NCBI GenBank assembly: GCA_013334825.1
Contig: JAAXWR010000002.1
Span: 100,025-153,008 of the forward strand
Direction of reading: 5' to 3'
Origin: Candidatus Yonathbacteria bacterium
Lineage (GTDB): Bacteria; Patescibacteriota; Minisyncoccia; Phycocordibacterales; JACNGX01
DNA: 52,984 bases
Position 1 is the first letter of the stretch. Every line of letters starts with the position of its first letter. Shown piece by piece: positions 2,044 through 48,375 of the stretch. A program made the translations under genes and the position numbers. Below the pieces are notes generated by a model. That model saw only the letters and a list, made by a program, of their open reading frames with translations, was not told where the DNA came from and ran no database searches.

Positions 2044-2117
2044 TGCGGGGTCGTCTAACGTGGTAAGACACGGGCGCTTTGAACGCTTGTATCTGGGTTC
2101 GAGCCCTAGCCCCGCAT
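2044..2117 (+). tRNA. tRNA-Gln(UUG), copy 1
   Basis: Cloverleaf read by hand: acceptor TGCGGGG/CCCCGCA, D stem GTCT/AGAC, anticodon loop CTTTGAA (anticodon TTG), T arm CTGGG-TTCGAGC-CCTAG. No encoded CCA. TGTTATACT extended -10 lies upstream. Confidence 0.85.
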
Positions 2118-2387
2118 CAAAAAGCTCGCTTTTTGATGCGGGGAGCGGGGCGACTGCTCGTCCCGCGTCTAGGGTTCGAAAGCCACAGCGATGTCTGAGC
2201 GATTTATCGCGAAGACCGCGAGGAGAATTATTTACGATATGCCGGAATGATTTTAACAGTAATAAAGAAGAAGTATCTTAAATGTGTGCATTTGTCTCAT
2301 AGATTGAAGATATTACACAATACGTTTTTGTATGCAATATAACAAATCTGTTGCGTCTTTTTGGTGATACGGTATTATACTGTATAT

Positions 2388-3104
2388 ATGTCTTTATCTC
2401 ACGAGACGCTGACGGCTCCGGCCGAGGCAGGGTCAGTTGACTCATTAGAAAAACGTTTTAATGAACTAAAGGTCGAAAGAGAAAAAGTAGAACAAAGTAT
2501 TCGAGAGTCTTTCGATATTAAACGCTTGAAGGTGTATGTATCGATAGTTAATAGAGTGCATGCTCAGGAAGGGATAGATGATACCGAGAATATATTACGT
2601 AAGCGTCTTGAAGAGCTCGGAGAAGATTATGATGAATTAAAAAAAATGTATGAAGGATATCTGGCATATAAAGCGCAAAATCTTGATGTTATCGTTACAG
2701 AAATGCAACAAGTACAAGCATCAGCCATTAAAAAGTTTCAAGAAGACATAAAAAGAGACATTGCAGAAGCAGGACTTTTTGCGGAAGCGCTGAAGAGGGA
2801 AAAGGATGTATATCTATTTTCGCTCCTCACTGAGATTGTGCAATATGAAGAAGGTTTCATAGCTTCGGGGAAAAAAGAAGATTCTCTCGATTCAATTCTT
2901 GAGGATCAACCTGCAGATATACAAAAAAAATATTTTGGCTTGAAATGGGCATATAGTGAATTGGAAGCAATGGAGGGGCCCTTTATACAAGGGTCGTATG
3001 ACAGGGAAAGGTTTGTATATGAAATTCTTAAAGATTTGGGCATTACGATTGATACTGGACATTCGTTGATTTTTAATCGTAGAATGGAATCTCTAGAAAG
3101 ATAA
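2388..3104 (+). CDS. hypothetical protein (charged, coiled-coil-like)
   Basis: ATG at 2388 sits 6 nt after TATACT (2376-2381). No recognisable family. Lies between the two identical tRNA-Gln genes. Confidence 0.6.
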   Translation: MSLSHETLTAPAEAGSVDSLEKRFNELKVEREKVEQSIRESFDIKRLKVYVSIVNRVHAQEGIDDTENILRKRLEELGEDYDELKKMYEGYLAYKAQNLDVIVTEMQQVQASAIKKFQEDIKRDIAEAGLFAEALKREKDVYLFSLLTEIVQYEEGFIASGKKEDSLDSILEDQPADIQKKYFGLKWAYSELEAMEGPFIQGSYDRERFVYEILKDLGITIDTGHSLIFNRRMESLER

Positions 3105-3115
3105 TAAATATGACT

Positions 3116-3151
3116 AAACACACGGCGACCTATTTAGGCTGCCGTGTGTTT
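3116..3151 (+). terminator. hairpin after the 2388-3104 gene
   Basis: 11-bp stem aaacacacggc / gccgtgtgttt with a 14-nt loop. Confidence 0.5.
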
Positions 3152-3194
3152 AGTTGGAAACTATTCTAAAAGATATGTTATCATGCACCTATAT

Positions 3195-3268
3195 TGCGGG
3201 GTCGTCTAACGTGGTAAGACACGGGCGCTTTGAACGCTTGTATCTGGGTTCGAGCCCTAGCCCCGCAT
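3195..3268 (+). tRNA. tRNA-Gln(UUG), copy 2
   Basis: Positions 3193-3270 are identical to 2042-2119, giving the same cloverleaf. Confidence 0.85.
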
Positions 3269-3270
3269 CA

Positions 3271-3433
3271 GAGCGAAGCGATGATGTGGGGCTAGGGCTC
3301 GAACGCGGAGGGGGTCGGGGAACCTGTTGGTTCCTTGTGGAGGAAGTACATGGAACCGTGGGTTCCATGAGCGCAGCCCAGCCCTTTCCACCGAAAGGGC
3401 TGGGCGAGCAGTGAGTAGCCCTAGCCCCGCATC
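3271..3433 (+). ncRNA. GC-rich multi-hairpin module ending in a copy of the tRNA-Gln 3' end (function unknown)
   Basis: Perfect stems at 3319-3334, 3349-3369 and 3376-3405. 3288-3304 is the exact complement of tRNA positions 3248-3264. 3417-3433 repeats tRNA 3253-3269. Confidence 0.35.
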
Positions 3434-3469
3434 CTACAATATTTATTCTCATTTCTCATTATTACTACC

Positions 3470-4213
3470 ATGACAAACCTCACAGGAACCATTGCCCTTG
3501 TTACTGGAGCGTCAAAAGGTATCGGACGCGCGACGGCAATCGCCCTCGCGAAGGAAGGGTGTTCGGTCATTATCAATTATAAATCCGACGCCGAAGCAGC
3601 CGCCGATACTCTCAAAGAGTGCGATGCCTATTCACAAGGTAACATGACGATTGTGGCGGATGTTTCGCGCGAAGAGGATGTTGCTCGGATGTTCAACGAT
3701 ATCGAGAGCAGATACTCCCGCCTGGATGTTCTTGTTAACAATGCAGGGATATTTGACGAGCGTGACAGTCCGACAAATATTGAAACATTTGAGCATATAT
3801 ACAGAAATAATTTTCTCAGTGCTGTTATCGTTACCAAATATACACTGTCTCTTATGAAGGAAGGTAAGATTGTGAACGTGTCCTCCATCCATGGGAGACT
3901 TGGGTACGGTCGGCCCGGGGCGATTGCATACGCGGCATTCAAATCTGCACTTGAGAGCTATACGAAAAATCTTGCAAAGGAACTTGCCCCTCATATATGT
4001 GTGAATGCCATTGCCCCTGGGAGAACACTTACACCGATGTGGGGTACTTTGAGTGAGGATGAGCAAAAAGAATTGGGGAAGGGACAGCTCATCGGTCGTA
4101 TGATAGAACCGGAAGAAATTGCCGACGGTATTCTTTTTCTCATCAAAAATGATGCAATGTGTGGCGAAGTGATGACGATGGATGGCGGTATGGGAATCGC
4201 ATATCTCAAATAG
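3470..4213 (+). CDS. SDR-family oxidoreductase (FabG-like)
   Basis: TGASKGIGRA cofactor motif, NNAG, and catalytic YAAFK (YxxxK). Confidence 0.9.
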   Translation: MTNLTGTIALVTGASKGIGRATAIALAKEGCSVIINYKSDAEAAADTLKECDAYSQGNMTIVADVSREEDVARMFNDIESRYSRLDVLVNNAGIFDERDSPTNIETFEHIYRNNFLSAVIVTKYTLSLMKEGKIVNVSSIHGRLGYGRPGAIAYAAFKSALESYTKNLAKELAPHICVNAIAPGRTLTPMWGTLSEDEQKELGKGQLIGRMIEPEEIADGILFLIKNDAMCGEVMTMDGGMGIAYLK

Positions 4214-4217
4214 CGGT

Positions 4218-4679
4218 ATGAAATGGCAACACCCACCGATTATCAAAATATACGAAGCGCTTGGTGCCGTTGCTGACGGACGTATTGATGTATTAGAGAA
4301 TACGGCAAAAGTGTATTCATCCAGCCGGAACAAATGGTATGACGTTGTGTATGATGAGACGACGGGTGCCATTATGACGAACGATAACGGATCGTATTGG
4401 AAAGAGTATCTTGGGTATCCGTCTATCGCATTTTTCTTTGTGAAAGGAATACTTCCATATGATGCGCGCATGGGTGAATTGCTCAAAGGTATTAAGTGGA
4501 AAGATATCAATCAAGAATTCAAGAACGATTTTGACAAGACCCTCGCACATATCGAATCATCGCTCTCGTCGCCTGAGAGTGAAGCACTTGCTATATATGT
4601 TCGTGATATTGATACCCGCATTGCGACCCTCGCTCCGGACATGTTCGGTAAGAAAATACTGCCACCCGAGGGGTACTGA
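4218..4679 (+). CDS. hypothetical protein
   Basis: ATG 4 nt after the SDR stop. 153 aa, no recognised family. Confidence 0.55.
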   Translation: MKWQHPPIIKIYEALGAVADGRIDVLENTAKVYSSSRNKWYDVVYDETTGAIMTNDNGSYWKEYLGYPSIAFFFVKGILPYDARMGELLKGIKWKDINQEFKNDFDKTLAHIESSLSSPESEALAIYVRDIDTRIATLAPDMFGKKILPPEGY

Positions 4680-4703
4680 GTTGCTGGAATCTTCCAAAGA
4701 GCG

Positions 4704-4712
4704 TGCTATAAT
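4704..4712 (+). promoter_or_regulatory. extended -10 (TGCTATAAT) upstream of tRNA-Gln(CUG)
   Basis: Exact TGnTATAAT match 29 nt before the tRNA 5' end. Confidence 0.55.
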
Positions 4713-4741
4713 GCCCTCATATATTGAATATTGCGGGATCG

Positions 4742-4815
4742 TCTAATGGTAGGACATCGCCCTCTGGAGGCGAGTATCTAGGTTCGAGTCCTAGTCCCGC
4801 AGCCAGTCTGGACAC
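4742..4815 (+). tRNA. tRNA-Gln(CUG)
   Basis: Acceptor TGCGGGA/TCCCGCA, anticodon stem TCGCC/GGCGA, loop CTCTGGA (anticodon CTG), T arm CTAGG-TTCGAGT-CCTAG, discriminator G and encoded CCA. Confidence 0.9.
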
Positions 4816-4853
4816 TGTTCCTGAGACCAGGACGGGTCATATAAAATTAACCT

Positions 4854-5498
4854 ATGGCAGAAAAAGATATGACAGACAAGATTCAGTCTTGTTTAAATCA
4901 GGGTGAATCTATAACAGAGGATCAAGTCAGGTCCTTAATGATTTTGGTGCGTAAGCATCTTGAGCTCATGTCTGATACAGACATGCTGCAATTTTTAACA
5001 CTCAACCTATTTTGTAATTGGTGCGCTCATATAGAAATTACACAATCAAATACAGGCCTGCGAACTCTCGCAAAGATTAATGATGTTTTGGTGCGCGTAA
5101 AAAATTCAACAAACACTGATCACATGCTCGCGGAAATATCGGGTGCAATTGGTCTCGATGTGCTTCGTGCAGAGCTAATTACTTTCTTATCTCGAATTGG
5201 AGTTACACATCGTTTGGATCAGAGAGCAGAGTGGGCGGCTTTTCTAAAGTGCTTACTTGAAGTTGTTCGTGATGTGCCACTAGCATTTCCTCCGATTGCT
5301 AAACTCAACAAGGGAGCTCAAAAAATCTACGATCAGATTGCTCAAAATCCGATTAAGCCCGGGGCAGGGGTAATTCGCGCTACTATTTCAAAGGTAGATT
5401 ACGGCACTCTTGGAGCAGGAGAAGGAGAATTATGGTGTCTCCTAATACGGACTGAAGATACTACTACTCTCATTGCTCCTCTCCGTATCCTCGTCTAG
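4854..5498 (+). CDS. hypothetical protein
   Basis: 214-aa ORF. ATG 6 nt after TAAAAT (4842-4847). No recognised family. Confidence 0.6.
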   Translation: MAEKDMTDKIQSCLNQGESITEDQVRSLMILVRKHLELMSDTDMLQFLTLNLFCNWCAHIEITQSNTGLRTLAKINDVLVRVKNSTNTDHMLAEISGAIGLDVLRAELITFLSRIGVTHRLDQRAEWAAFLKCLLEVVRDVPLAFPPIAKLNKGAQKIYDQIAQNPIKPGAGVIRATISKVDYGTLGAGEGELWCLLIRTEDTTTLIAPLRILV

Positions 5499-5503
5499 TG
5501 GAT

Positions 5504-6841
5504 TCATGAAGGGTTTTCGAGCAATACTTTTTTGTTTATCAGAGTAAGCTTACTTTTAAACGACTGCATCAGCTCGCGCTTCTCCGCGACGGTTCCTTTT
5601 TTGAGAATATATTTTGCATAGGATCGTAGGTCTAAGCCGCTCTGGTCGGTTATCTGGTCTTCGGTTAAGCCAAGTACATTATTACGGAAATTACTGAAGC
5701 GCCCCATCTCTTTTTCGAGTTTTTCTTTAATTCCAATCTTATCTATTTGGATCTTGTCTAAGATCGCTAAAAGTTGTTCGACAAGACTGTCCTCACGCAA
5801 ATAGGTGTTTTTACACGACTTGTCATAAAATCGGGTACAGCCATAGTAGATGTAGCTGTTCGTAGATCCGTCTTTTAGATTTTTAAACTTCTCCTGTGCG
5901 GTTATACCAGAATTACATATTCCGCATTTCATCAGGCGAGTAAATGCAAATTCTTTCACCGCTGGCCCATGCGGTTTATGCGAATCAAGTTTTTCCTGGA
6001 CCTTCTTGAATAACTCCTGACTGATGATTGATTCGTGTCGGCCGATATTCCACCTACCACTCTTCCGTGGGTACTCGAGCAGTCCACAGTAAAAAGGATT
6101 TCGGAGAACGGTGTGCACGTTGCTAAGAGTGAAGGGCTTACCACTTTTGGTTCTAAATTTTAGGTCATCCTTCAACCATCTGTATAACGCTCTTCCACTC
6201 CACTTTTCGTACGCCACTTTTTCAAACATGATTTTGATGACGTGAGAGCGTTGAGGATCGAGAATGACGTGGCATTTCTTGGTGCGATCCGGGTGGTTGA
6301 GGTATCCGGTTGGTGCAACACTCGGCCACAGTCCCATTTCAATCCTGGTGCGAAGTCCGCGCTTCACGTTGACACTCTTATTATCGTTATCAAGCTTCGC
6401 CTGACTACAAAGAATCATCAAGAGGAACTTTTCGCTTGGAGAGTTGGTGAAGCGTTGCCCGTACGTTTTTACTTCTATCAGTTTGTGCTGATCCATCAGG
6501 TCAACAATTGAGCCGAGGTCGCCGGCATTTCTTGAGAGGCGATCGGGATGCCAAGCAAGAATACCGCCAAATCGACCCTCTTTAATTTGCCGGATCATCT
6601 CATTGAAGACCGGTCTCTGAGCAGTCTCTTTTGCCGAGTGCGACTCGCGTTTAATCTCTGTCACCTCGATTCCGTCTCGCTGGGCTAACTGCAACATCTC
6701 CTTGATCTGGGAATCGATGGACAGAGCCTGCTTTTCATCCGATTCGCTCGATTTACGGGCGTATAGGCAGTATTTGGGCGCTTCTATAGGAGGCGCCGGG
6801 TCAGAATTCAACTCTAGCGGGTTGCTGATGTGCATACACAC
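5504..6841 (-). CDS. large serine recombinase (resolvase domain + recombinase domain + zinc ribbon)
   Basis: N-terminal YARKSSESDEKQALSIDSQ resolvase-type catalytic Ser region. Later CGICNSG ... YYGC zinc-ribbon-like cysteines. Confidence 0.85.
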   Translation of the reverse strand: MCMHISNPLELNSDPAPPIEAPKYCLYARKSSESDEKQALSIDSQIKEMLQLAQRDGIEVTEIKRESHSAKETAQRPVFNEMIRQIKEGRFGGILAWHPDRLSRNAGDLGSIVDLMDQHKLIEVKTYGQRFTNSPSEKFLLMILCSQAKLDNDNKSVNVKRGLRTRIEMGLWPSVAPTGYLNHPDRTKKCHVILDPQRSHVIKIMFEKVAYEKWSGRALYRWLKDDLKFRTKSGKPFTLSNVHTVLRNPFYCGLLEYPRKSGRWNIGRHESIISQELFKKVQEKLDSHKPHGPAVKEFAFTRLMKCGICNSGITAQEKFKNLKDGSTNSYIYYGCTRFYDKSCKNTYLREDSLVEQLLAILDKIQIDKIGIKEKLEKEMGRFSNFRNNVLGLTEDQITDQSGLDLRSYAKYILKKGTVAEKRELMQSFKSKLTLINKKVLLENPS

Positions 6842-9057: not shown

Positions 9058-9334
9058 TCTTGAGCCTTGTTGTATATAAATTAACCTAAGCTAAGCTAGA
9101 AATAGGTAGCAAATTTTGCTACAATTATTTAACAGTTCGGCCTAAACTTGTCGGTTAACTCCGGCAAGCATGGCAATAAATACCCGCTAGAGATCAAAGG
9201 ACTCCTGGTCAGAGTCACTCTAGCGGGTCATATCTGGAAACAGGTATGGGTTCGGCCGAAAGGTTGGATCGCGATGGTCAGGAGCCTTTTGATTATCTGG
9301 TTCACTCCGTCGATTAAAAACCCGCTAGAAAATT

Positions 9335-33568: not shown

Positions 33569-33680
33569 CGGTAGGGCTCGTCCCGCAGTCACTAAGCGGA
33601 TTGCTCCAAGTATTCGCAATCCGCAAAGTGCTGCTCCCCGCGGCGCGGCGACAAGCATGCGCGAACAGGCCACGCATCTT
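33569..33680 (-). repeat. family-E structured element fused to a copy of the tRNA-Asn 3' end
   Basis: The reverse complement aligns along about 110 nt with 43197-43313. Hairpin 33596-33624 has loop GAATACTTGGA. The terminal cggtagggctcg equals the tRNA-Asn 3' region (34431-34442). Confidence 0.8.
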
Positions 33681-33761
33681 ATTGTGTAAAGAGAAAGGCG
33701 GTCATCTCACGATGCCGCCTTGTAAAATACTCTTACAAACACAAATTACAAGCTGTTTTTA

Positions 33762-34304
33762 TTAAACTGCAACAAGCCCGACTTTGGTAGATTCGTACTT
33801 GGCACGGGTGATCATGCCGTTCTGGTCGGTGACAGTTATGCAATCTCCGACTTCCATCACCACCAAAGAATCATACCAGCCGATATTCTCTTTGTCCTGG
33901 CGGACAAAGAAATCAACCGGTCCGGTCGCGTTCTCAATGGCCTTGTTGTGTCCTTCGCGGGAAATGGACATCCCGCGTTCAAACCTCCAAGCGCCTGTGC
34001 ACTTTTGGTTTGAATGTCCGGCAACTGAGTATTGTGCCTTCGTACGAATCACGACGAGTATGTTTTCACTTTCGTGATTCGGCTTTGCCAGGGCGTACCC
34101 GTCACGAATCGGAACAGGGTGTGCTTCCATAATGATGCCAACCCACGGCATCCCAGGACCCTCGATGCGTTCGGCGGGATTTTTGTGGAAGAACGGGATG
34201 TTTTTCTGATTTTTCCCCGCTCCCAAACAAAGGGCGGACACTTTTGATCCAGTACTCATTGCACCGCGGCGGACCTTCTGGTCGGAAATTTCGTAGACGT
34301 TCAT
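33762..34304 (-). CDS. hypothetical protein (cassette 1 downstream of tRNA-Asn)
   Basis: 180-aa ORF with a strong AAGGAGG 5 nt upstream of the ATG. Confidence 0.6.
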   Translation of the reverse strand: MNVYEISDQKVRRGAMSTGSKVSALCLGAGKNQKNIPFFHKNPAERIEGPGMPWVGIIMEAHPVPIRDGYALAKPNHESENILVVIRTKAQYSVAGHSNQKCTGAWRFERGMSISREGHNKAIENATGPVDFFVRQDKENIGWYDSLVVMEVGDCITVTDQNGMITRAKYESTKVGLVAV

Positions 34305-34425
34305 GGCTTCCTCCTTAAGGAAAATCCGACAGCTTTCGCTGGGATTGTTTTAGTGTTTGTGTATAGGTATTGTTGGGAACTTTATTGTGTATATTATACA
34401 CTAGAATAAGTCTATTTGTCAAGTG

Positions 34426-34498
34426 CTCCGGCGGTAGGGCTCGAACCTACGACCAACGAGTTAACAGCTCGCCGCTCTACCAACTGAGCTACGCCGGA
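34426..34498 (-). tRNA. tRNA-Asn(GUU)
   Basis: Minus-strand cloverleaf: acceptor TCCGGCG/CGCCGGA, D arm GCTC-AGTTGGTA-GAGC, anticodon loop CTGTTAA, T arm GTAGG-TTCGAGC-CCTAC. Confidence 0.9.
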
Positions 34499-42060: not shown

Positions 42061-42291
42061 GACGAGAAGCAAGAATACGGGAAAACTGGAAGCAAGAATC
42101 ACGAAGCACGAATCAAGAATACGGGAAAACTGGAAGCGCGGGACGAACTTACTGGAAGCAAGCTTGCCATGCACCCTACGTGGTGCAGGGAACATACGAA
42201 CCGAGACGGGAATCAGGAATACGAGACTGAAGGACAGGAGGTGAGAATCAAGACAAAACTGATAGGGAAGCATGGGACAGTGGCGAATACT
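42061..42291 (-). repeat. family F intergenic repeat, locus 4 (inverted orientation)
   Basis: The reverse complement carries tcgtattcttgattcgtgcttcgtgattc modules and a degenerate hairpin (42167-42190). Confidence 0.8.
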
Positions 42292-42660
42292 TTATTTTTT
42301 TTGTTCCGTCACTCTAAATGCGACAATTTTTTCTATGAGGTCATAGGGAATAGGTTTTTCAATAGGGAATTGGATCGCACCCTTTGATGTTTTGTAGAGA
42401 GAAAGCTCCTTTTCAAATTTTTTGATTGCTGAGGGTGTCGGATAAAAACCGATATGATACGTGAATGCGGCGAAGTGTACCAAGTTGCCGTTCAGAGTAA
42501 ATGTCGGCATGCCGTAGGCAATTTTCTCTTCCGCGCGTGGCGCAGCTTTTTGTATTGTTCGCCGTATCTTTTTCAGTATCGTCTGGATATTAGAAGGGAA
42601 CGCAGCGATATATGCGTCGATATCCGCGTATGTGTGTTGCATGCTGGTGCGCCCGCTCAT
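42292..42660 (-). CDS. DUF1801 (YdhG-like) domain protein
   Basis: IDAYIAAFPSNIQTILKKIRRTI ... YGMPTF ... LVHFAAFTYHIGFYP is the typical DUF1801 layout. Confidence 0.6.
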   Translation of the reverse strand: MSGRTSMQHTYADIDAYIAAFPSNIQTILKKIRRTIQKAAPRAEEKIAYGMPTFTLNGNLVHFAAFTYHIGFYPTPSAIKKFEKELSLYKTSKGAIQFPIEKPIPYDLIEKIVAFRVTEQKK

Positions 42661-42813
42661 ATGCGCATTATAGCAGTAGGGGAAGACATGTCGCAGTAAC
42701 GGTAAGTGGATAATGTCGAGGTGTATCGTCAAAAAAGCAACATTGTCTTTTGGGCATTTTTGTATTAAAATAATGCGCACGTATTTCAAGAAATACAACG
42801 TATCATACAAATT

Positions 42814-42833
42814 GGCCCTATCGTCTGATGGTT
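42814..42833 (+). pseudogene. 5' fragment of tRNA-Glu
   Basis: ggccctatcgtctgatggtt matches tRNA-Glu positions 1-20 with one mismatch. It lies 74 nt upstream of the real gene. Confidence 0.6.
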
Positions 42834-42887
42834 GATCGCCGTCGCGAAAGGGTAATAACATATATAAAGAGAAAAGAGAATAATCAT

Positions 42888-42959
42888 GGCCCTATCGTCT
42901 AATGGTTAGGACATCACCCTCTCACGGTGGTAATCGGGGTTCAAATCCCCGTAGGGTCA
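42888..42959 (+). tRNA. tRNA-Glu(CUC)
   Basis: Acceptor GGCCCTA/TAGGGTC, D arm GTCT-AATGGTTA-GGAC, anticodon stem TCACC/GGTGG, loop CTCTCAC, T arm CGGGG-TTCAAAT-CCCCG. Confidence 0.9.
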
Positions 42960-43024
42960 CAAAAAATCTTTAGGTCGCCGAAGAGGCGACCTTTAGATTT
43001 TTCTGTGACCCTACGAGAAAGGCA

Positions 43025-43167
43025 ACTGCTTGCCTTTCGTGGGATTTGAACCGGCGGAGCATATCGCACCAAAAGTGCGATGCGAGCCGCGCCCAGCGGT
43101 ACTTATGAAAATCCGAATACATGGAGGATTTTCATTAGTAACCGCGGGGTCGACTCCCCGTAGGGTC
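43025..43167 (+). repeat. family-E structured module 1 (ends in a tRNA-Glu 3'-end copy)
   Basis: Hairpin atcgcac/gtgcgat, GCCGCGCC box, hairpin 43106-43134 with loop GAATACATGGA, TTAGTAAC, T-arm-like cgggg-tcgact-ccccg, then tagggtc. Confidence 0.8.
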
Positions 43168-43170
43168 TTT

Positions 43171-43313
43171 ATATGAGTCGAACGGCGCAAGGCGGTATAC
43201 AAGATGCGCGACTTGTTCGCGCATGCTTGTCGCCGCGCCGCGTCCAGGAGTACTTAGTAGATTGCGAATACTTGGAGCAATCTACTTAGTAACTCCGGGA
43301 CGACTCCCCGTAA
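43171..43313 (+). repeat. family-E structured module 2
   Basis: Hairpin atgcgcga/tcgcgcat, GCCGCGCC box, hairpin 43257-43285 with loop GAATACTTGGA, TTAGTAAC, then ccgggacgactccccgta. Confidence 0.8.
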
Positions 43314-43318
43314 ATCGG

Positions 43319-43470
43319 ACTGCTTGCCTTTCGTGGGATTTGAACCGGCGGAGCATATCGCACCAAAAGTGCGATGCGAGCCGCGCCCAGTAACCCTTTG
43401 CATATTCCGAATACCTGGAGTAATATACGTAATAATCGGTAATAATCGCGGGACGATTTCCCGTAGGGTG
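43319..43470 (+). repeat. family-E structured module 3
   Basis: 43319-43390 is identical to 43025-43096. Degenerate hairpin with loop GAATACCTGGA (43409-19). Ends cgcgggacgatttcccgtagggtg. Confidence 0.75.
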
Positions 43471-43596
43471 TCACCGTCATTGTTTGGTATGAGAAAGCTT
43501 CGGTAAAATGTCTTTTGAGAGGTACTTTAGTTGATATTTCAATATTTTTTTAAACGTCTTTTGACTCCTTTTAATAAAGTAAAATAAGAATTTTCA

Positions 43597-45696
43597 ATGA
43601 AAATATTCAAGATAAAAATTGAAAACTACAGACTTTTAAAAAAATTCTCTATTGATTTGGAGGATAAACTTTCGTTGATTATTGGCAAGAACAATACTGG
43701 GAAAACCTCTATACTTACAATCCTCGATAAGTCATTAAATTTTGAAAAGATTAGATTTTCTCTAGATGATTTTAATGTTGACTTCAAGAAGGACCTGAAG
43801 ACCTTAATTGAGACAAATGAAGATACGTTAGAAGATGATTTTAATAAATACAATGGTTTAGGTATAAAACTCAAGTTATTCATTAAATATGGAGAGGGTG
43901 ATAATCTCACCAATATCAGTCGAGTAATGATGGATCTTGACCCAACCAATAATGTTATCGTTCTCGGTTTCGATTATGTACTGGACTATTCTCATTATAT
44001 AGAACTTAAAAGAGATTATTCTGCTTTCAAAATTAACGAGGAATCAAAAAAGGCAGCCGAATCAAAATATGAAATAAAATGTTTTTTTGATTTTCTCAGA
44101 GAGACTCACTCTTCTTACTTTAAAATAAGAAGAAAAACCATCGAGTTTGATCAGCACACAAAGGAAGAAAATGAGGCAAATTTCATCGATTTAATTAAGG
44201 AAAAGATAAACATCAAGGACATCATTAATTTTAAATACATCAGCGCGAAGCGAGAGGTCGCCAACACCGATTCCGACAAAACGCTCTCGGCGCAAACCTC
44301 TAAGATATATGAGAAGACCGAAATAAGTGACGACCAGAGCGAGGTCATTGAGGTTTTTAAAGATAGGCTGACCGAAGCCGATGCCAGTTTAAGTAACGTA
44401 TATAAAACGCTGTTTGCTAACGCCATAGAGAAAGTAAGAAAATTCGGAGGCGTCAAAATCAACGAATCAGAGATTGAAATAATCTCAACTCTGCAACATC
44501 AAAAATTGCTTGAGGGAAACACTACTGTCGTATATAGGCATGATGTAGATAGCCAGCTCCCCGAGCATTACAACGGACTCGGCTACATGAATCTAATTAG
44601 CATGATTTTTGAGATTGAAATCCTCTTGCAGGATTTCAAGAAAGAAAAAGAATCAAAACCCGCTGACATCAATCTGCTTTTTATTGAAGAGCCTGAGGCG
44701 CATACTCACCCTCAAATGCAGTATGTGTTCATCAAGAACATAAAGGAGCTACTCAGAGAAGGAATCAAAAGAACGGACGGAGAAAATCGAGAGCTACAGT
44801 ACATCATCAGCACCCACTCTTCGCACATTGTCGCCGACAGTGATTTCGACGACATCAAATATCTCAAAAAAGACGACAGCGATGGTGTCACAGCAAGAAA
44901 TCTCAAAGACCTTCAGAAAGAATACACAACAGGGAAAAACCAGTATCAATTTTTGAGGCAGTATCTGACGATTAGCAGGGCTGAAATATTCTTTGCAGAG
45001 AAAGCTGTGCTTATCGAGGGTGACACCGAAAGAATCTTGATACCGACGATAATGAAGAAAGTCGATATTGAGGAAGTAACCGCACACGAAACGGCAGGTA
45101 CGACAGACCCTTGTCTTCCGCTATTGTCGCAGAATATTTCCATCATAGAAGTTGGCGCATATTCTCAGATTTTCGAGAAATTCATAGACTTTCTGGGAAT
45201 CAAATCTTTGGTTGTTACAGACTTGGACACAGTCGATGCTGACGGAGTGGCTTGCAAAGTAGCCGACGGTGTTGGCTACTCAAACAGTGCCCTCAACTTC
45301 TTTTTTGGCACACCCACACTCGCCGCTTTGAGAGGATTTGCCATCGGAGACAAGCAACTCAGCAAGGTCACTGGCGCTTGGGCTCGACAAGCCGATGGTA
45401 AGGTTTGTGTCGTATACCAAGTTGAAGAGAATGGGTATAACGCTCGAAGCTTCGAGGACGGATTCATACACCTTAATCGAGCATTCGTAACAACTAACAA
45501 AGACAGCTTCCAAGGATTGCAGAATCGGGCTGACTTTGACGATGGTGCGAAAGACGCGTATGACCTCGCTGGCAACTGCATAAAAAAGAAAACTCACTTT
45601 GCATTGGATATTCTATTTCACAGCAATGAAAACCTCGATAACTGGCTAATACCGTCGTATATAAGAGAAGGACTCCTATGGTTGAAGAAAGACTAA
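43597..45696 (+). CDS. OLD-family ATPase-Toprim nuclease (GajA-like)
   Basis: Walker A GKNNTGKTS, Walker B region LLFIEEPEAHTHPQMQ, C-terminal Toprim VLIEGDTERILIP and VVTDLDTVD. Confidence 0.85.
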   Translation: MKIFKIKIENYRLLKKFSIDLEDKLSLIIGKNNTGKTSILTILDKSLNFEKIRFSLDDFNVDFKKDLKTLIETNEDTLEDDFNKYNGLGIKLKLFIKYGEGDNLTNISRVMMDLDPTNNVIVLGFDYVLDYSHYIELKRDYSAFKINEESKKAAESKYEIKCFFDFLRETHSSYFKIRRKTIEFDQHTKEENEANFIDLIKEKINIKDIINFKYISAKREVANTDSDKTLSAQTSKIYEKTEISDDQSEVIEVFKDRLTEADASLSNVYKTLFANAIEKVRKFGGVKINESEIEIISTLQHQKLLEGNTTVVYRHDVDSQLPEHYNGLGYMNLISMIFEIEILLQDFKKEKESKPADINLLFIEEPEAHTHPQMQYVFIKNIKELLREGIKRTDGENRELQYIISTHSSHIVADSDFDDIKYLKKDDSDGVTARNLKDLQKEYTTGKNQYQFLRQYLTISRAEIFFAEKAVLIEGDTERILIPTIMKKVDIEEVTAHETAGTTDPCLPLLSQNISIIEVGAYSQIFEKFIDFLGIKSLVVTDLDTVDADGVACKVADGVGYSNSALNFFFGTPTLAALRGFAIGDKQLSKVTGAWARQADGKVCVVYQVEENGYNARSFEDGFIHLNRAFVTTNKDSFQGLQNRADFDDGAKDAYDLAGNCIKKKTHFALDILFHSNENLDNWLIPSYIREGLLWLKKD

Positions 45697-47579
45697 AACT
45701 TGAGCCAGAGGTTCAGGAAATATTCACTTGTATCGACAACAAGCGGAATTTTCTCTTGAGTGGTGGTGCTGGAAGTGGCAAGACCCATTCTTTGGTACAA
45801 GTAATCAAACAGGTCATAGCAGAAAACCCGACATCGAGAATAGCTTGCATGACTTTTACGAATGCGGCGGTCAAACAAATCGAAGAAAGAATCGGACATG
45901 CTAATCTTAGCGTATCCACGATCCATGATTTTTTATGGGATAACATCAAGCATTTTCAAAACGAACTCAAAATAGCGTTAGTTTCTATGGCAAATGACCC
46001 TCTTGTTGAAAAAATTAAAATAGAAGACCCAACACCAGTACCGAATGATTTTTTTGATCCATGCGAAAAAGGAATTCAATATAAAGAATATCTAAAGTTG
46101 AATAAGGGTATAATTTCACATGACGAGTTACTCTTGGTAGCAAACTATCTTTTTGAAAATTACCCTAAGCTTTGCGACATTGTAAAAGACAAGTTCGGTT
46201 TCATCTTCATTGACGAATATCAGGACACGGACAAAGCGGTTGTGGTAATTCTTCTTGACCATTTCAATCAAAGCGTTAAGCACAACATCGTCGGTTTCTT
46301 CGGGGATGCTATGCAGTCGATTTACGACGACGGTATCGGGAATCTTGACGCATATAAAGGAACAAATCCAGATCAAGTACAGGAAATTAAAAAGGAGCAA
46401 AATAGAAGAAATCCTAGAGCTATCATTGACCTCGCTAACAGGTTGCGCACGGACGGAATAACACAGGTACCCTCAATCGATAGAACCGCCCCGAACATGA
46501 CGACTGGCGGAGAGGTAAAAGAAGGAATCATTAAATTTATCTACTCTACAAATCCAGACATTGATCCAGTGAGATCATATCTGTCAGAAAATTTTGGTTG
46601 GGACTTTTCCAATTCCAAGGAAACAAAGGAACTGAATCTGACACATAACCTAATAGCGGACAAGGCTGGTTTTAGAACTTTGATGGATATATACGACAAG
46701 GAGAGAATCTTGGAATTGAAATACAAAATCACAAAGGAGATAAAGGAAAAAAATATAACGATTGCTGAGGCAGCCACTTTCGGTGAGGTTATTGACCAAG
46801 TTAATTTGATGATTAGTCCCACTACCGAGATTGGTAGGTTTCTTACTGAAAATCCTGAATTGTATGAAAAGGCTCGAGGATATCTTTTTTCAGATTTCAG
46901 AAAAATATATGCGGATAAAGAGCAATTACTCGACGATAAAAAACAAGACGAGGAGGATGAGAATAAAAAGGGCACAAAAAGAGATAATCTCATACGGCAC
47001 CTCTTTAAAATTCAAAATAATATTTTTCTGTATCAAAACAAGCAGTATAATGAATTTTTACGAGTCACTGATTTTTCTATTTTAACTATTGGAGATAAGG
47101 AGGATTTACAGAAGAATATTGAAGAGTTGACGAGTGTTGGAGATAAGACAATCGAAGAAATAATTAATCTTGCTGATGAAAACGGAATTTGTTTTATTGA
47201 CGACAATCTTGTTCGTTTCAAAATTGAAAATGAATACCTTTACGATCGTGTAAAAGAGGTTAAATTCAGCGAGTTCCAGAAGCTGTACGATTATTTGGAG
47301 GGTAAGACTCCATTCTCTACCCAGCATAAAACCAAAGGTGCGGAATTCGACAATGTATTCATCATTTTGGATAATGGCAAATGGAACGACTACAATTTCG
47401 AAAACCTTTTTCTTGGGTCAGGTAAAGCGAGTGTTTTAGAAAGAACACAAAAAATTTTCTATGTTTGCTGTACTCGGTCAAAGGAAAAATTAGCTGTCTT
47501 CTTTCATGATCCATCGGCTGGAGTAATCACCAAAGCACAAGAATGGTTCGGAGCTGAAAATGTGATATCACTGCCGTAG
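45678..47579 (+). CDS. UvrD/PcrA-like superfamily 1 helicase (GajB-like)
   Basis: GGAGSGKTHS, FIFIDEYQDTD, HKTKGAEFDNVFI and YVCCTRSKEKL. Overlaps the upstream OLD gene by 19 nt. Confidence 0.85.
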   Translation: MVEERLKLEPEVQEIFTCIDNKRNFLLSGGAGSGKTHSLVQVIKQVIAENPTSRIACMTFTNAAVKQIEERIGHANLSVSTIHDFLWDNIKHFQNELKIALVSMANDPLVEKIKIEDPTPVPNDFFDPCEKGIQYKEYLKLNKGIISHDELLLVANYLFENYPKLCDIVKDKFGFIFIDEYQDTDKAVVVILLDHFNQSVKHNIVGFFGDAMQSIYDDGIGNLDAYKGTNPDQVQEIKKEQNRRNPRAIIDLANRLRTDGITQVPSIDRTAPNMTTGGEVKEGIIKFIYSTNPDIDPVRSYLSENFGWDFSNSKETKELNLTHNLIADKAGFRTLMDIYDKERILELKYKITKEIKEKNITIAEAATFGEVIDQVNLMISPTTEIGRFLTENPELYEKARGYLFSDFRKIYADKEQLLDDKKQDEEDENKKGTKRDNLIRHLFKIQNNIFLYQNKQYNEFLRVTDFSILTIGDKEDLQKNIEELTSVGDKTIEEIINLADENGICFIDDNLVRFKIENEYLYDRVKEVKFSEFQKLYDYLEGKTPFSTQHKTKGAEFDNVFIILDNGKWNDYNFENLFLGSGKASVLERTQKIFYVCCTRSKEKLAVFFHDPSAGVITKAQEWFGAENVISLP

Positions 47580-47851
47580 TTATATTTCATCTTTTCTCAA
47601 AATAGTTTTATTCCCCAAGCATTTTGCAAGTTATTGAAGACCACCTAATGAGGACAAATTCTTGTATTATATTATCCATGTTTTTAATTTCACTCCAGTT
47701 TTGTCTCCAAGAAGTGTCTACATATTGGTTAGTCACACAAAATAGTTATATACGAGAAAGTTTGAAACGGTCTAAAAACATTAAGAGCAGTATTATAAGA
47801 CGAGGAATCTCCTTTAACCTTCTCAACCCTGCTATACTAAAGAAAAGCTAT

Positions 47852-48235
47852 ATGAGTATGAAACCAAAAAAACCAAAAGATAGTAGCGAGTGGCGCGACA
47901 CCTATTATCATAAACTGTTCGGGCTCAAAGCCGCGCAAGAAGCGGAGCGGGTGCTTCCGCTTTTTGAACGAGAACACCCTGGCGACAGCCGGCCGCGAAA
48001 GGCAATCGAAGCCTTGCGATCGTGGGCGGAAGGGAAGCGTGCCCTCAATATGAAAGAAGTGCGGACGCTTTCTCTCGATGCTCATGCCGCCGCACGAGAA
48101 GCGACATCGGACGCTGCCCGGCACGCGGCGCGAGCCGCGGGGCAGGCGATTGCCACATGGCATGTGCCCACGCATGCATTGGGGGCCTTTTCCTATGCGG
48201 CAAAAGCTCTCTGTGCTCAAAAGAAAGACAGGTAA
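47852..48235 (+). CDS. all-alpha hypothetical protein, resembles 'putative immunity protein' (Imm5-like) families, tentative
   Basis: 127 aa, Ala-rich helical repeat DAHAAAREATSDAARHAARAAGQAIATWHVPTHALGAFSYAAKA. Visibly GC-richer than its neighbours. TGCTATACT promoter at 47830-38. Confidence 0.4.
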   Translation: MSMKPKKPKDSSEWRDTYYHKLFGLKAAQEAERVLPLFEREHPGDSRPRKAIEALRSWAEGKRALNMKEVRTLSLDAHAAAREATSDAARHAARAAGQAIATWHVPTHALGAFSYAAKALCAQKKDR

Positions 48236-48375
48236 TAAAGCCACCCCAAAGAAGGGGACATCTTTCCACTGACACATTTGACAGAAATAGTCAAACATGG
48301 TAGTCTCTGAGAAGGTCAAAGTTGTTCTTTGTTTTTTTGTTTGTATTTTTTTAAAACCCTCTATTTTTAAAAAAC

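Follow-up and report, generated by a model that had tools for sequence, protein, structure and literature searches.

The subject of this report is a set of structured repeats that stand directly behind a tRNA-Glu gene in 52,984 nucleotides of DNA from a Candidatus Yonathbacteria bacterium (contig JAAXWR010000002.1); this whole stretch is called the window below. The repeats belong to a large undescribed family of non-coding structured elements, about 150–200 nt in length, that are found in the 3' part of many tRNA genes. We favor the view that these units are small, non-autonomous elements that integrate into the 3' part of tRNA genes and stack by serial insertion, and we put the probability of this reading at about one half. 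It builds on the anatomy of the units and their association with tRNA genes, a fixed junction within the T loop, covarying hairpins with a strand bias, similar cores at different tRNAs, a copy with cargo, and signs of decay.

Units in the 3' part of many tRNA genes

The units share a common order of segments. The first is a tRNA 3' part, running from the T loop (C56) to the discriminator and functional within the tRNA, and it is followed by a trailer with a bidirectional terminator-like hairpin, the loop of which is often ACTGCT. The reverse complement of trailer and tRNA 3' part comes next (here called antiY), giving a long palindrome, H0. Then follows the core, consisting of GGCGGAGC with hairpin A and subsequently hairpin B, and a second direct copy of the tRNA 3' part lies at a fixed offset past hairpin B. 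An alignment of relatives yields a consensus core in which GGCGGAGC, hairpin A, GCGAGCCGGGGTCGCGAGTACTTA, a stem strand, GAATACTTGGA, the other stem strand, and TTAGTAACTCGTGACC succeed one another. Of 52 distinct units, about 24 have an inverted segment that pairs with 17 or more of the last 24 tRNA nucleotides; in the remainder, it pairs with only the last 3–9 nt.

Relatives were collected with two patterns and a covariance model. A scan of a genome collection for GCCGCGCC...GAATACNTGGA was unspecific (118 of 120 matches were due to chance, in GC-rich genomes), and the two hairpin-bearing matches come from one Paceibacteria genome and one Taylorbacteria genome. In metagenomes, the pattern ACTT-N-GAATACNTGGA-N-TTAGTRAC matched 105 contigs, of which almost all are true relatives; they come from groundwater, lakes, and digesters. 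The covariance model, R1, finds 131 copies in 100 loci, and in the window it recognizes four copies (83.9, 81.9, 65.6, and 40.5 bits), with the rest at noise level. The 11-mer GAATACNTGGA itself has four exact occurrences in the window, where 0.10 would be expected, and four were reached in none of 100 shuffles. A preliminary description of the window, made from its letters alone, had called the loop GAATAC(A/T/C)TGGA invariant. R1 also finds copies that the pattern missed and in which the same lower stem is capped by other apical loops (e.g., GAGTGAAGCGAA and GAGGAACGAA), so that the "invariant" loop marks just one class and the family is wider.

Searches of known families and of mobile DNA returned little. 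Viral contigs gave only chance matches within coding sequence, and phage and plasmid collections gave none. Scanning window positions 42600–43700 against Rfam 15 up to an E-value of 10, we obtained the tRNA as sole match, all others having E > 0.003 and lying on the tRNA or the terminator, so that the earlier failure to place the modules in any known non-coding RNA family is borne out. A literature search for the motif strings and topic terms was likewise without match.

The units are linked to tRNA genes. In the window all four copies are tied to a tRNA (three in tandem behind tRNA-Glu and one behind tRNA-Asn). Among the 108 metagenome copies, 56 lie 40–150 nt downstream of a tRNA gene on the same strand, where chance would give 1.2%, and 77 lie within 500 nt of one, an excess that reflects tandem arrays; for 17 tRNA-less copies, the contig leaves less than 350 nt of upstream sequence. 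The association of modules with tRNA 3' ends that had been noted for the window thus extends to other loci. Units are borne by tRNAs of 22 isoacceptors, tandem arrays occur in at least 17 loci, and the copies found by R1 only are likewise placed behind tRNAs (Gly, Pro, Tyr, Val, Arg, and Lys). One and the same subfamily can be found behind Phe and Gly in one locus (L153) and behind Val and Pro in another (L180), each copy having repeats that fit its own tRNA. Within the window, the cores behind tRNA-Glu (unit 2) and tRNA-Asn are 85% identical over 103 nt (blastn).

The junction was examined in 21 copies, those in which the flank and the 3' end of the nearest upstream tRNA have 9 nt or more in common. 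In 16 of these, the displaced copy starts at offset 7 after TTAGTRAC, which corresponds to C56, and in the rest at offsets 6–12; the stretch shared with the local tRNA measures 9–19 nt and involves about ten tRNA species. Site-specific integration into tRNA genes classically leaves such a footprint, with a tRNA 3' segment repeated directly and from a constant starting point. The resemblance to attachment-site ends at the T loop, proposed from the window, therefore holds across many loci and many tRNAs, including the fixed offset to hairpin B. The tRNA 3' part and the inverted copy also change together: the T loop reads TTCAAAT in the window and TTCGATT in a related contig (L162); both differences recur at the corresponding positions of the inverted copy, whereas the downstream direct copy is without them. 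These two segments therefore behave as one unit.

Covariation was assessed on 70 non-redundant copies and 26 pairs. Standard pairs fill 93.7% of the cells, compared with 73.9% after shuffling, and the observed value was reached in none of 500 shuffles. Changes on both sides of a pair were seen in 335 cells (90 when shuffled), and the covariation score is 0.531, against 0.173 for shuffled alignments and at most 0.096 for slid structures. The search pattern left the stems free, prescribing only ACTT, the loop, and TTAGTRAC, so it cannot have produced their pairing. With 70 copies, the claim that compensatory changes mark a selected single-strand structure, made earlier on the few copies in the window, is sustained. 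The strand can be specified as well: hairpins A and B of 52 distinct units contain 123 G-U pairs and 4 A-C mismatches when folded in the sense of the tRNA versus 27 and 35 in antisense, and mean fold energies are -37.7 and -30.8 kcal/mol for the tRNA-sense and opposite strand, respectively. This bias implies that the core is selected as a single strand of tRNA polarity, be it RNA or one DNA strand. Hairpin B further has a conserved T.T mismatch (U.U in RNA) and a bulged A, and the long palindrome H0 is without strand bias.

Longer variants built from the same pieces exist too (L179 9232–9445 and 3460–3700, L198 1133–1180, L234 300–500, L019 4660–4870, and L083 655–885). Their extras comprise a hairpin GGGUGAGAAGC-GAAUACUUGGA-GCUUCGCAAG, a UUUGUAAUCAAA hairpin, and a GAAUC-UGUAA-GAUUC hairpin. 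Some have become part of a unit, others stand alone with a terminator after them, and none belongs to an Rfam family, permissive thresholds included. Two of them come from named Parcubacteria genomes, which, together with gene content and sample types, suggests that the hosts of the relatives are members of the candidate phyla radiation (CPR)/Patescibacteria.

The tRNA-Glu array and the tRNA-Asn copy

The array starts in the tRNA-Glu(CUC) gene at 42888–42960 (+) (ARAGORN; Rfam tRNA, 62.1 bits). That three tandem modules of about 145 nt, with hairpins and tRNA-Glu 3' fragments, follow it was described correctly in the preliminary account and is confirmed by sequence, repeat search, and folding, as is the exact identity of 43025–43096 and 43319–43390 over 72 nt. 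The boundaries, on the other hand, had to be moved, as the natural edge of a unit falls within the T loop and not at the module starts chosen before. After re-phasing, unit 1 spans 42944–43154, unit 2 43155–43304, and unit 3 43305–43459, with a displaced end, cccgtagggtg, after them. The direct repeats of the tRNA-Glu 3' segment in the array measure 8–13 nt.

The first segment of unit 1 (Y1) is the tRNA-Glu 3' part from the T loop on, at about 42944–42960 (+), and the center of the palindrome H0 of this unit is a bidirectional, intrinsic-terminator-like hairpin at 42962–43002 (repeat search; a terminator scan of both strands gives 42972–42992). The inverted copy of the tRNA-Glu 3' end (43005–43052, +) is in two pieces, gtgaccctacg at 43005–15 and gggatttgaacc at 43041–52 (+), separated by a small hairpin with the loop ACTGCT at 43018–37. 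This splitting of antiY into acceptor and T-stem parts is typical of the window's subfamily and was also seen in L157, L153, L175, and L180. The core (43044–43151, +; R1 81.9 bits, E-value 5e-18; fold z-score against shuffles -5.96) consists of the junction GGCGGAGC, hairpin A, GCGAGCCGCGCC, and the long hairpin B with its loop GAATACATGGA at 43115–25 (+). The complementarity of gaccctacg (43007–15) and cgtagggtc (43159–67) that had been pointed out is real; it is not an acceptor-stem-like closure, being one arm of the long palindrome formed by the tRNA 3' end and its own inverted copy. The T-arm-like hairpin is present in the window as described, yet it is no general feature: it is confined to the window's subfamily and arises where the end of hairpin B joins the displaced T-loop half.

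The direct copy of the tRNA-Glu 3' part at 43155–43167 (+), tccccgtagggtc, which had been taken as the end of module 1, is the start of unit 2. An antisense T-loop fragment, gagtcgaac, stands directly 5' of the unit 2 core (43175–43302, +; 83.9 bits, E-value 1.6e-18; z-score -7.37), the loop of which is GAATACTTGGA at 43266–76. A shortened direct copy (tccccgta, 43305–43312, +) opens unit 3. The core of this last unit (43338–43441, +; 40.5 bits; z-score -1.93; loop GAATACCTGGA at 43409–19) has the hairpin A of unit 1 and a degenerate, decayed hairpin B. The final direct copy, tttcccgtagggtg at 43457–43470 (+), is probably the displaced original tRNA-Glu 3' end. Like the other copies, it was located by repeat search.

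The fourth copy carries cargo. It had been recorded as an inverted copy, which is correct; it lies at 33579–33685 (-) (65.6 bits, E-value 4.4e-14; loop GAATACTTGGA at 33605–15) and ends in 12 nt of a tRNA-Asn 3' part. Its left boundary is tRNA-Asn(GUU) at 34425–34498 (-) (ARAGORN; Rfam). Directly after this tRNA comes a promoter-like, near-consensus site (TTGACA, 18 nt, TATAAT; 34380–34424, -), then a Shine-Dalgarno-like aaggagg with an open reading frame (ORF) of 180 aa (33762–34304, -), a hairpin with a T-run, the core, and, immediately past hairpin B, a 12-nt direct copy from the tRNA-Asn 3' part (cgagccctaccg, 33569–33580, -). The view that nothing is carried between the modules thus applies to the tRNA-Glu array and fails for the tRNA-Asn copy. 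The 180-aa ORF has no Pfam match and no homolog in any of the fetched loci.

The array recurs in two independent metagenome contigs, L162 and L220, that are 85–96% identical to the window and have the same three units, and it is therefore no assembly artifact. Between the window and these contigs, the segment with tRNA-Glu and the array (window 42061–48323) differs in orientation with respect to the PBP gene and ORF 48376 on its flanks, being inverted; the two contigs are without the DUF1801 gene and without the Gabija and Imm5 genes discussed below. In both contigs, a miniature inverted-repeat transposable element (MITE) with inverted ends ccagctccactttcat...atgaaagtggagctgg interrupts hairpin B after GGTAC (L162 1–165; L220 131–360); it destroys hairpin B of units 2 and 3 and once also sits after the displaced tRNA end. 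In L157 (590–1990, -), an IS110-family element (Transposase_20 and DEDD_Tnp_IS110; ends ccatagaaccctg and cagggttctatag) has entered a unit precisely between its inverted tRNA copy and its GGCGGAGC. Together with the degenerate hairpin B of unit 3, the MITE and IS110-family insertions are signs that resident copies are not maintained. The 3' non-coding region of the IS110-family element has stretches matching both of its flanks.

The window has several other features. Upstream of tRNA-Glu, at 42813–42833, its initial 20 nt occur a second time along with a promoter-like stretch (TTGATC...TAATAA). The junction of this 5' duplication is within the D loop; the window has a single additional copy, and L162 (540–860, -) has four to five in tandem, each of 74 nt. 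Directly 3' of the array lies a Gabija-type defense pair (43597–48235, +), made up of a 699-aa protein (AAA_15 and OLD-TOPRIM) and a UvrD-like helicase of 633 aa; an Imm5-like ORF comes after them. We rejected the idea that the Gabija genes are a cassette, their far end being without tRNA fragment or module. At 9139–9270 (+), the window also has a match to the Rfam family LOOT RNA (RF03000; 79.1 bits versus a gathering score of 46.4).

Proposed integration at tRNA genes and competing explanations

If the units are integrative elements, insertion would occur between Ψ55 and C56, leaving the tRNA intact while its old 3' part is moved downstream. Each unit would bring a replacement tRNA 3' part starting at C56, with its own trailer and bidirectional terminator. 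Repeated insertion at one tRNA would then produce tandem arrays, such as the three units after tRNA-Glu, and some units would travel with cargo, such as the 180-aa ORF behind tRNA-Asn. Hairpins A and B would be the selected part, folded in the sense strand as RNA or single-stranded DNA, and most likely serve as the recognition target of a recombinase or nuclease. The role of the inverted and direct repeats derived from the tRNA would be to display the target in copied form. We infer that movement proceeds by site-specific recombination and that the enzyme acts in trans.

A number of points weigh against this reading. To our knowledge, a classical integrase needs no inverted copy of the core sequence, and the reading does not account for how near-identical cores come by repeats that fit each new tRNA. 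No empty site or excised form was seen among the loci, and movement is therefore inferred rather than observed. In another type of unit, the junction is at the discriminator and the tRNA is duplicated little or not at all; this type might be no more than a structured region behind a terminator. The high number of G-U pairs is a better fit for RNA than for DNA, and the long form that stands free and has its own terminator resembles an RNA gene. Finally, no recombinase was found as a regular neighbor in a Pfam census of 112 ORFs, which returned housekeeping genes, and large serine recombinases occur in only three loci, not adjacent to units. Nor did clustering of 1028 neighboring ORFs, alongside the census, reveal a recurrent protein family other than housekeeping genes (Mur ligases, PBP, aminoacyl-tRNA synthetases, IF-2, and a type IV secretion pilin). 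No tyrosine recombinase was found among the scanned ORFs of the window or the top families of the 112 neighboring ORFs.

Some of these points lead to the best of the alternatives, namely that the units encode a structured non-coding RNA that affects the tRNA or the way it is processed. Read-through transcription from the tRNA would produce this RNA, except in the free-standing long form, which would have a promoter of its own. The antisense segment could, for instance, pair with the 3' half of the tRNA and the downstream sense copy could serve as an anti-antisense, with hairpins A and B as a scaffold for a protein or ligand; gene conversion would keep copies behind different tRNAs similar. The sense-specific folding with its many G-U pairs, the strong covariation with conserved non-canonical positions (U.U, bulged A), and the fixed orientation relative to the tRNA are all in line with such an RNA, as is the inverted copy that tracks T-loop changes of its own tRNA. 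So is the long form at L179 9232–9445, closed by a terminal stem and followed by a terminator on the same strand. However, the core always lies behind the intrinsic-terminator-like hairpin without a promoter-like site in between, and pairing of the antisense segment with the tRNA would break the cloverleaf. The duplication starting at C56, the cargo copy, the tandem arrays, and the decayed or interrupted copies point to inserted DNA and not to an RNA that the host maintains, and only 56 of the 131 tRNAs in the loci bear a unit. On balance we see the RNA as a real, if minor, possibility.

Within the integrative reading, a more far-reaching version can be formulated. CPR-like bacteria might have an undescribed recombination system of the cassette type, with the units as its working parts and any tRNA T loop as attachment site. 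In it, a conserved two-hairpin scaffold (single-stranded DNA or RNA) would offer a trans-acting enzyme a duplex copy of the target that the unit makes itself from the inverted and direct tRNA 3' segments, which would make a single family of elements retargetable to at least 22 tRNAs. In this full form we find the proposal unlikely, though worth stating; the chance that a new mechanism is involved is substantial.

Integron cassettes and their attC sites are among the closest known analogies to the units. They, too, form arrays of short units serially inserted at one attachment point, each unit being empty or holding one ORF and ending in a structured site that folds strand-specifically, with conserved unpaired or extrahelical bases (here the T.T mismatch and bulged A) and structure kept over sequence. 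Still, the attachment point here is a tRNA T loop instead of attI or dif, the array starts at a tRNA gene, no integrase is adjacent, and no link to IntI or Xer was found. The units lack R and L boxes: they end in ...TTAGTRAC-TCGTGAC|CGA..., with TAGTAAC in place of RYYYAAC and no GTTRRRY. Moreover, the apical hairpins are conserved and the basal stem depends on the target, which is the reverse of attC, and the unit supplies a replacement tRNA 3' end with a terminator. The single-strand integration of CTX-phi resembles the units in having an inverted copy of the attachment sequence next to one junction.

Genomic islands in tRNA genes and cis-mobilizable elements (CIMEs) share other traits with the units: direct repeats of the tRNA 3' part at both ends (8–13 nt for Glu, 12 nt for Asn, and up to 19 nt in relatives), a crossover in the T loop, a tRNA restored by the element, and arrays formed by tandem accretion. 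Like CIMEs, the units are without a recombinase of their own. They differ in measuring only about 150–200 nt and in that one core family serves at least 22 tRNA species. Their inverted core copy and two covarying hairpins set them apart from integrase attachment sites, none of which, as far as we know, needs such parts.

Guide-like RNAs deserve a short comparison as well. Like IS110 bridge RNAs and the arrays of TIGR (tandem interspaced guide RNA) systems (PMC12045711), the units are two-stem or tandem stem-loop non-coding structures in CPR bacteria that match both target strands. In contrast to these, they have no large guide-bearing internal loops and no box C/D motifs. No DEDD recombinase adjoins them, and the sole IS110-family gene, in L157, belongs to an insertion with its own inverted repeats. 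A TIGR array was excluded on size (about 150 nt versus units of 36 nt in PMC12045711) and on the absence of the Nop-domain Tas family among the neighbors. Hammerhead, hairpin, and other small ribozymes were dropped because their core motifs are absent, as were relatives of tmRNA, Y-RNA, and RNase P, which had no Rfam or ARAGORN support. A primer-binding site for mature tRNA was likewise discarded, as the inverted copy runs into the genomic trailer and not into CCA.

Another explanation, which we deem quite improbable, takes the units for extragenic palindromes akin to repetitive extragenic palindromic (REP) sequences or bacterial interspersed mosaic elements, spread by a single-copy domesticated HUH nuclease (similar to REP-associated tyrosine transposases, RAYTs) or another nuclease. 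Terminators of tRNA genes would then be sites that tolerate hairpins, and template switching during extension of the palindromes would have left the tRNA fragments as by-products. Its appeal is evident from the general likeness to REPs, REP doublets forming hairpins (REPINs), and MITEs, which are also small, non-coding hairpin units present in many copies at transcript 3' ends, with compensatory differences in their stems. Multi-hairpin units at the 3' ends of transcription units, conserved loops on variable stems, strand-specific folding, and a palindrome H0 without strand bias would all suit it. REPs are known targets of IS110-family elements, and one such element targets a unit here. The units, however, are tied strictly to tRNA genes, with only four copies in 53 kb and all of them at tRNAs instead of at genes generally. 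Their fixed junction at C56 and tRNA-derived direct repeats of up to 19 nt, copied from the target, are no REP features. No Y1_Tnp family member or Y1-transposase-like ORF was seen near the copies in the census of 112 ORFs, and a RAYT or transposase partner was not seen in the 53-kb window or the short contigs. As for MITEs, an inverted repeat (antiY/Y) is present, but it derives from the local tRNA and varies in length between copies.

Highly improbable, finally, is that the array is a scar left by repeated integration and excision of islands at tRNA-Glu (e.g., large serine recombinase islands) with functionless hairpins: such islands do occur in these genomes, but most units have no island on either side, and the covariation and sense bias over 70 diverged copies bespeak selection on the hairpins. 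The clearest island is that of L241 (2408–8860), 6.4 kb inserted in tRNA-Glu(UUC), where the gene for a 513-aa large serine recombinase overlaps the tRNA 3' end and the old, diverged tRNA 3' end and its unit have been displaced to the far side; its right end is without an A/B module. The Gabija island after the array could be cited in the same vein, as could a large serine recombinase of 445 aa in the window (5504–6841, -), near tRNA-Gln and 36 kb from the array, which also overturns the earlier statement that the window holds no integrase. Around this gene (window 2044–6841), three tRNA-Gln genes (2044, 3195, and 4732) alternate with ORFs of no assigned function before the serine recombinase is reached, which looks like serial island insertion at tRNA-Gln, without A/B modules.

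Significance for small-genome bacteria

Should the integrative reading be right, the units would form an uncatalogued, widespread class of miniature tRNA-targeting elements in small-genome, uncultured bacteria. Their target-copying design is not known from integrases, integrons, or insertion sequences and would be combined with a strongly conserved folded core. Such elements would shape the regions behind tRNA genes, where defense islands gather (Gabija in this case), and would point to an undescribed and possibly retargetable recombinase or nuclease. If the units are RNAs instead, they would constitute a new class of tRNA-linked non-coding RNA with excellent covariation support. Either way, the covariance model is able to annotate hundreds of intergenic regions that are now blank.

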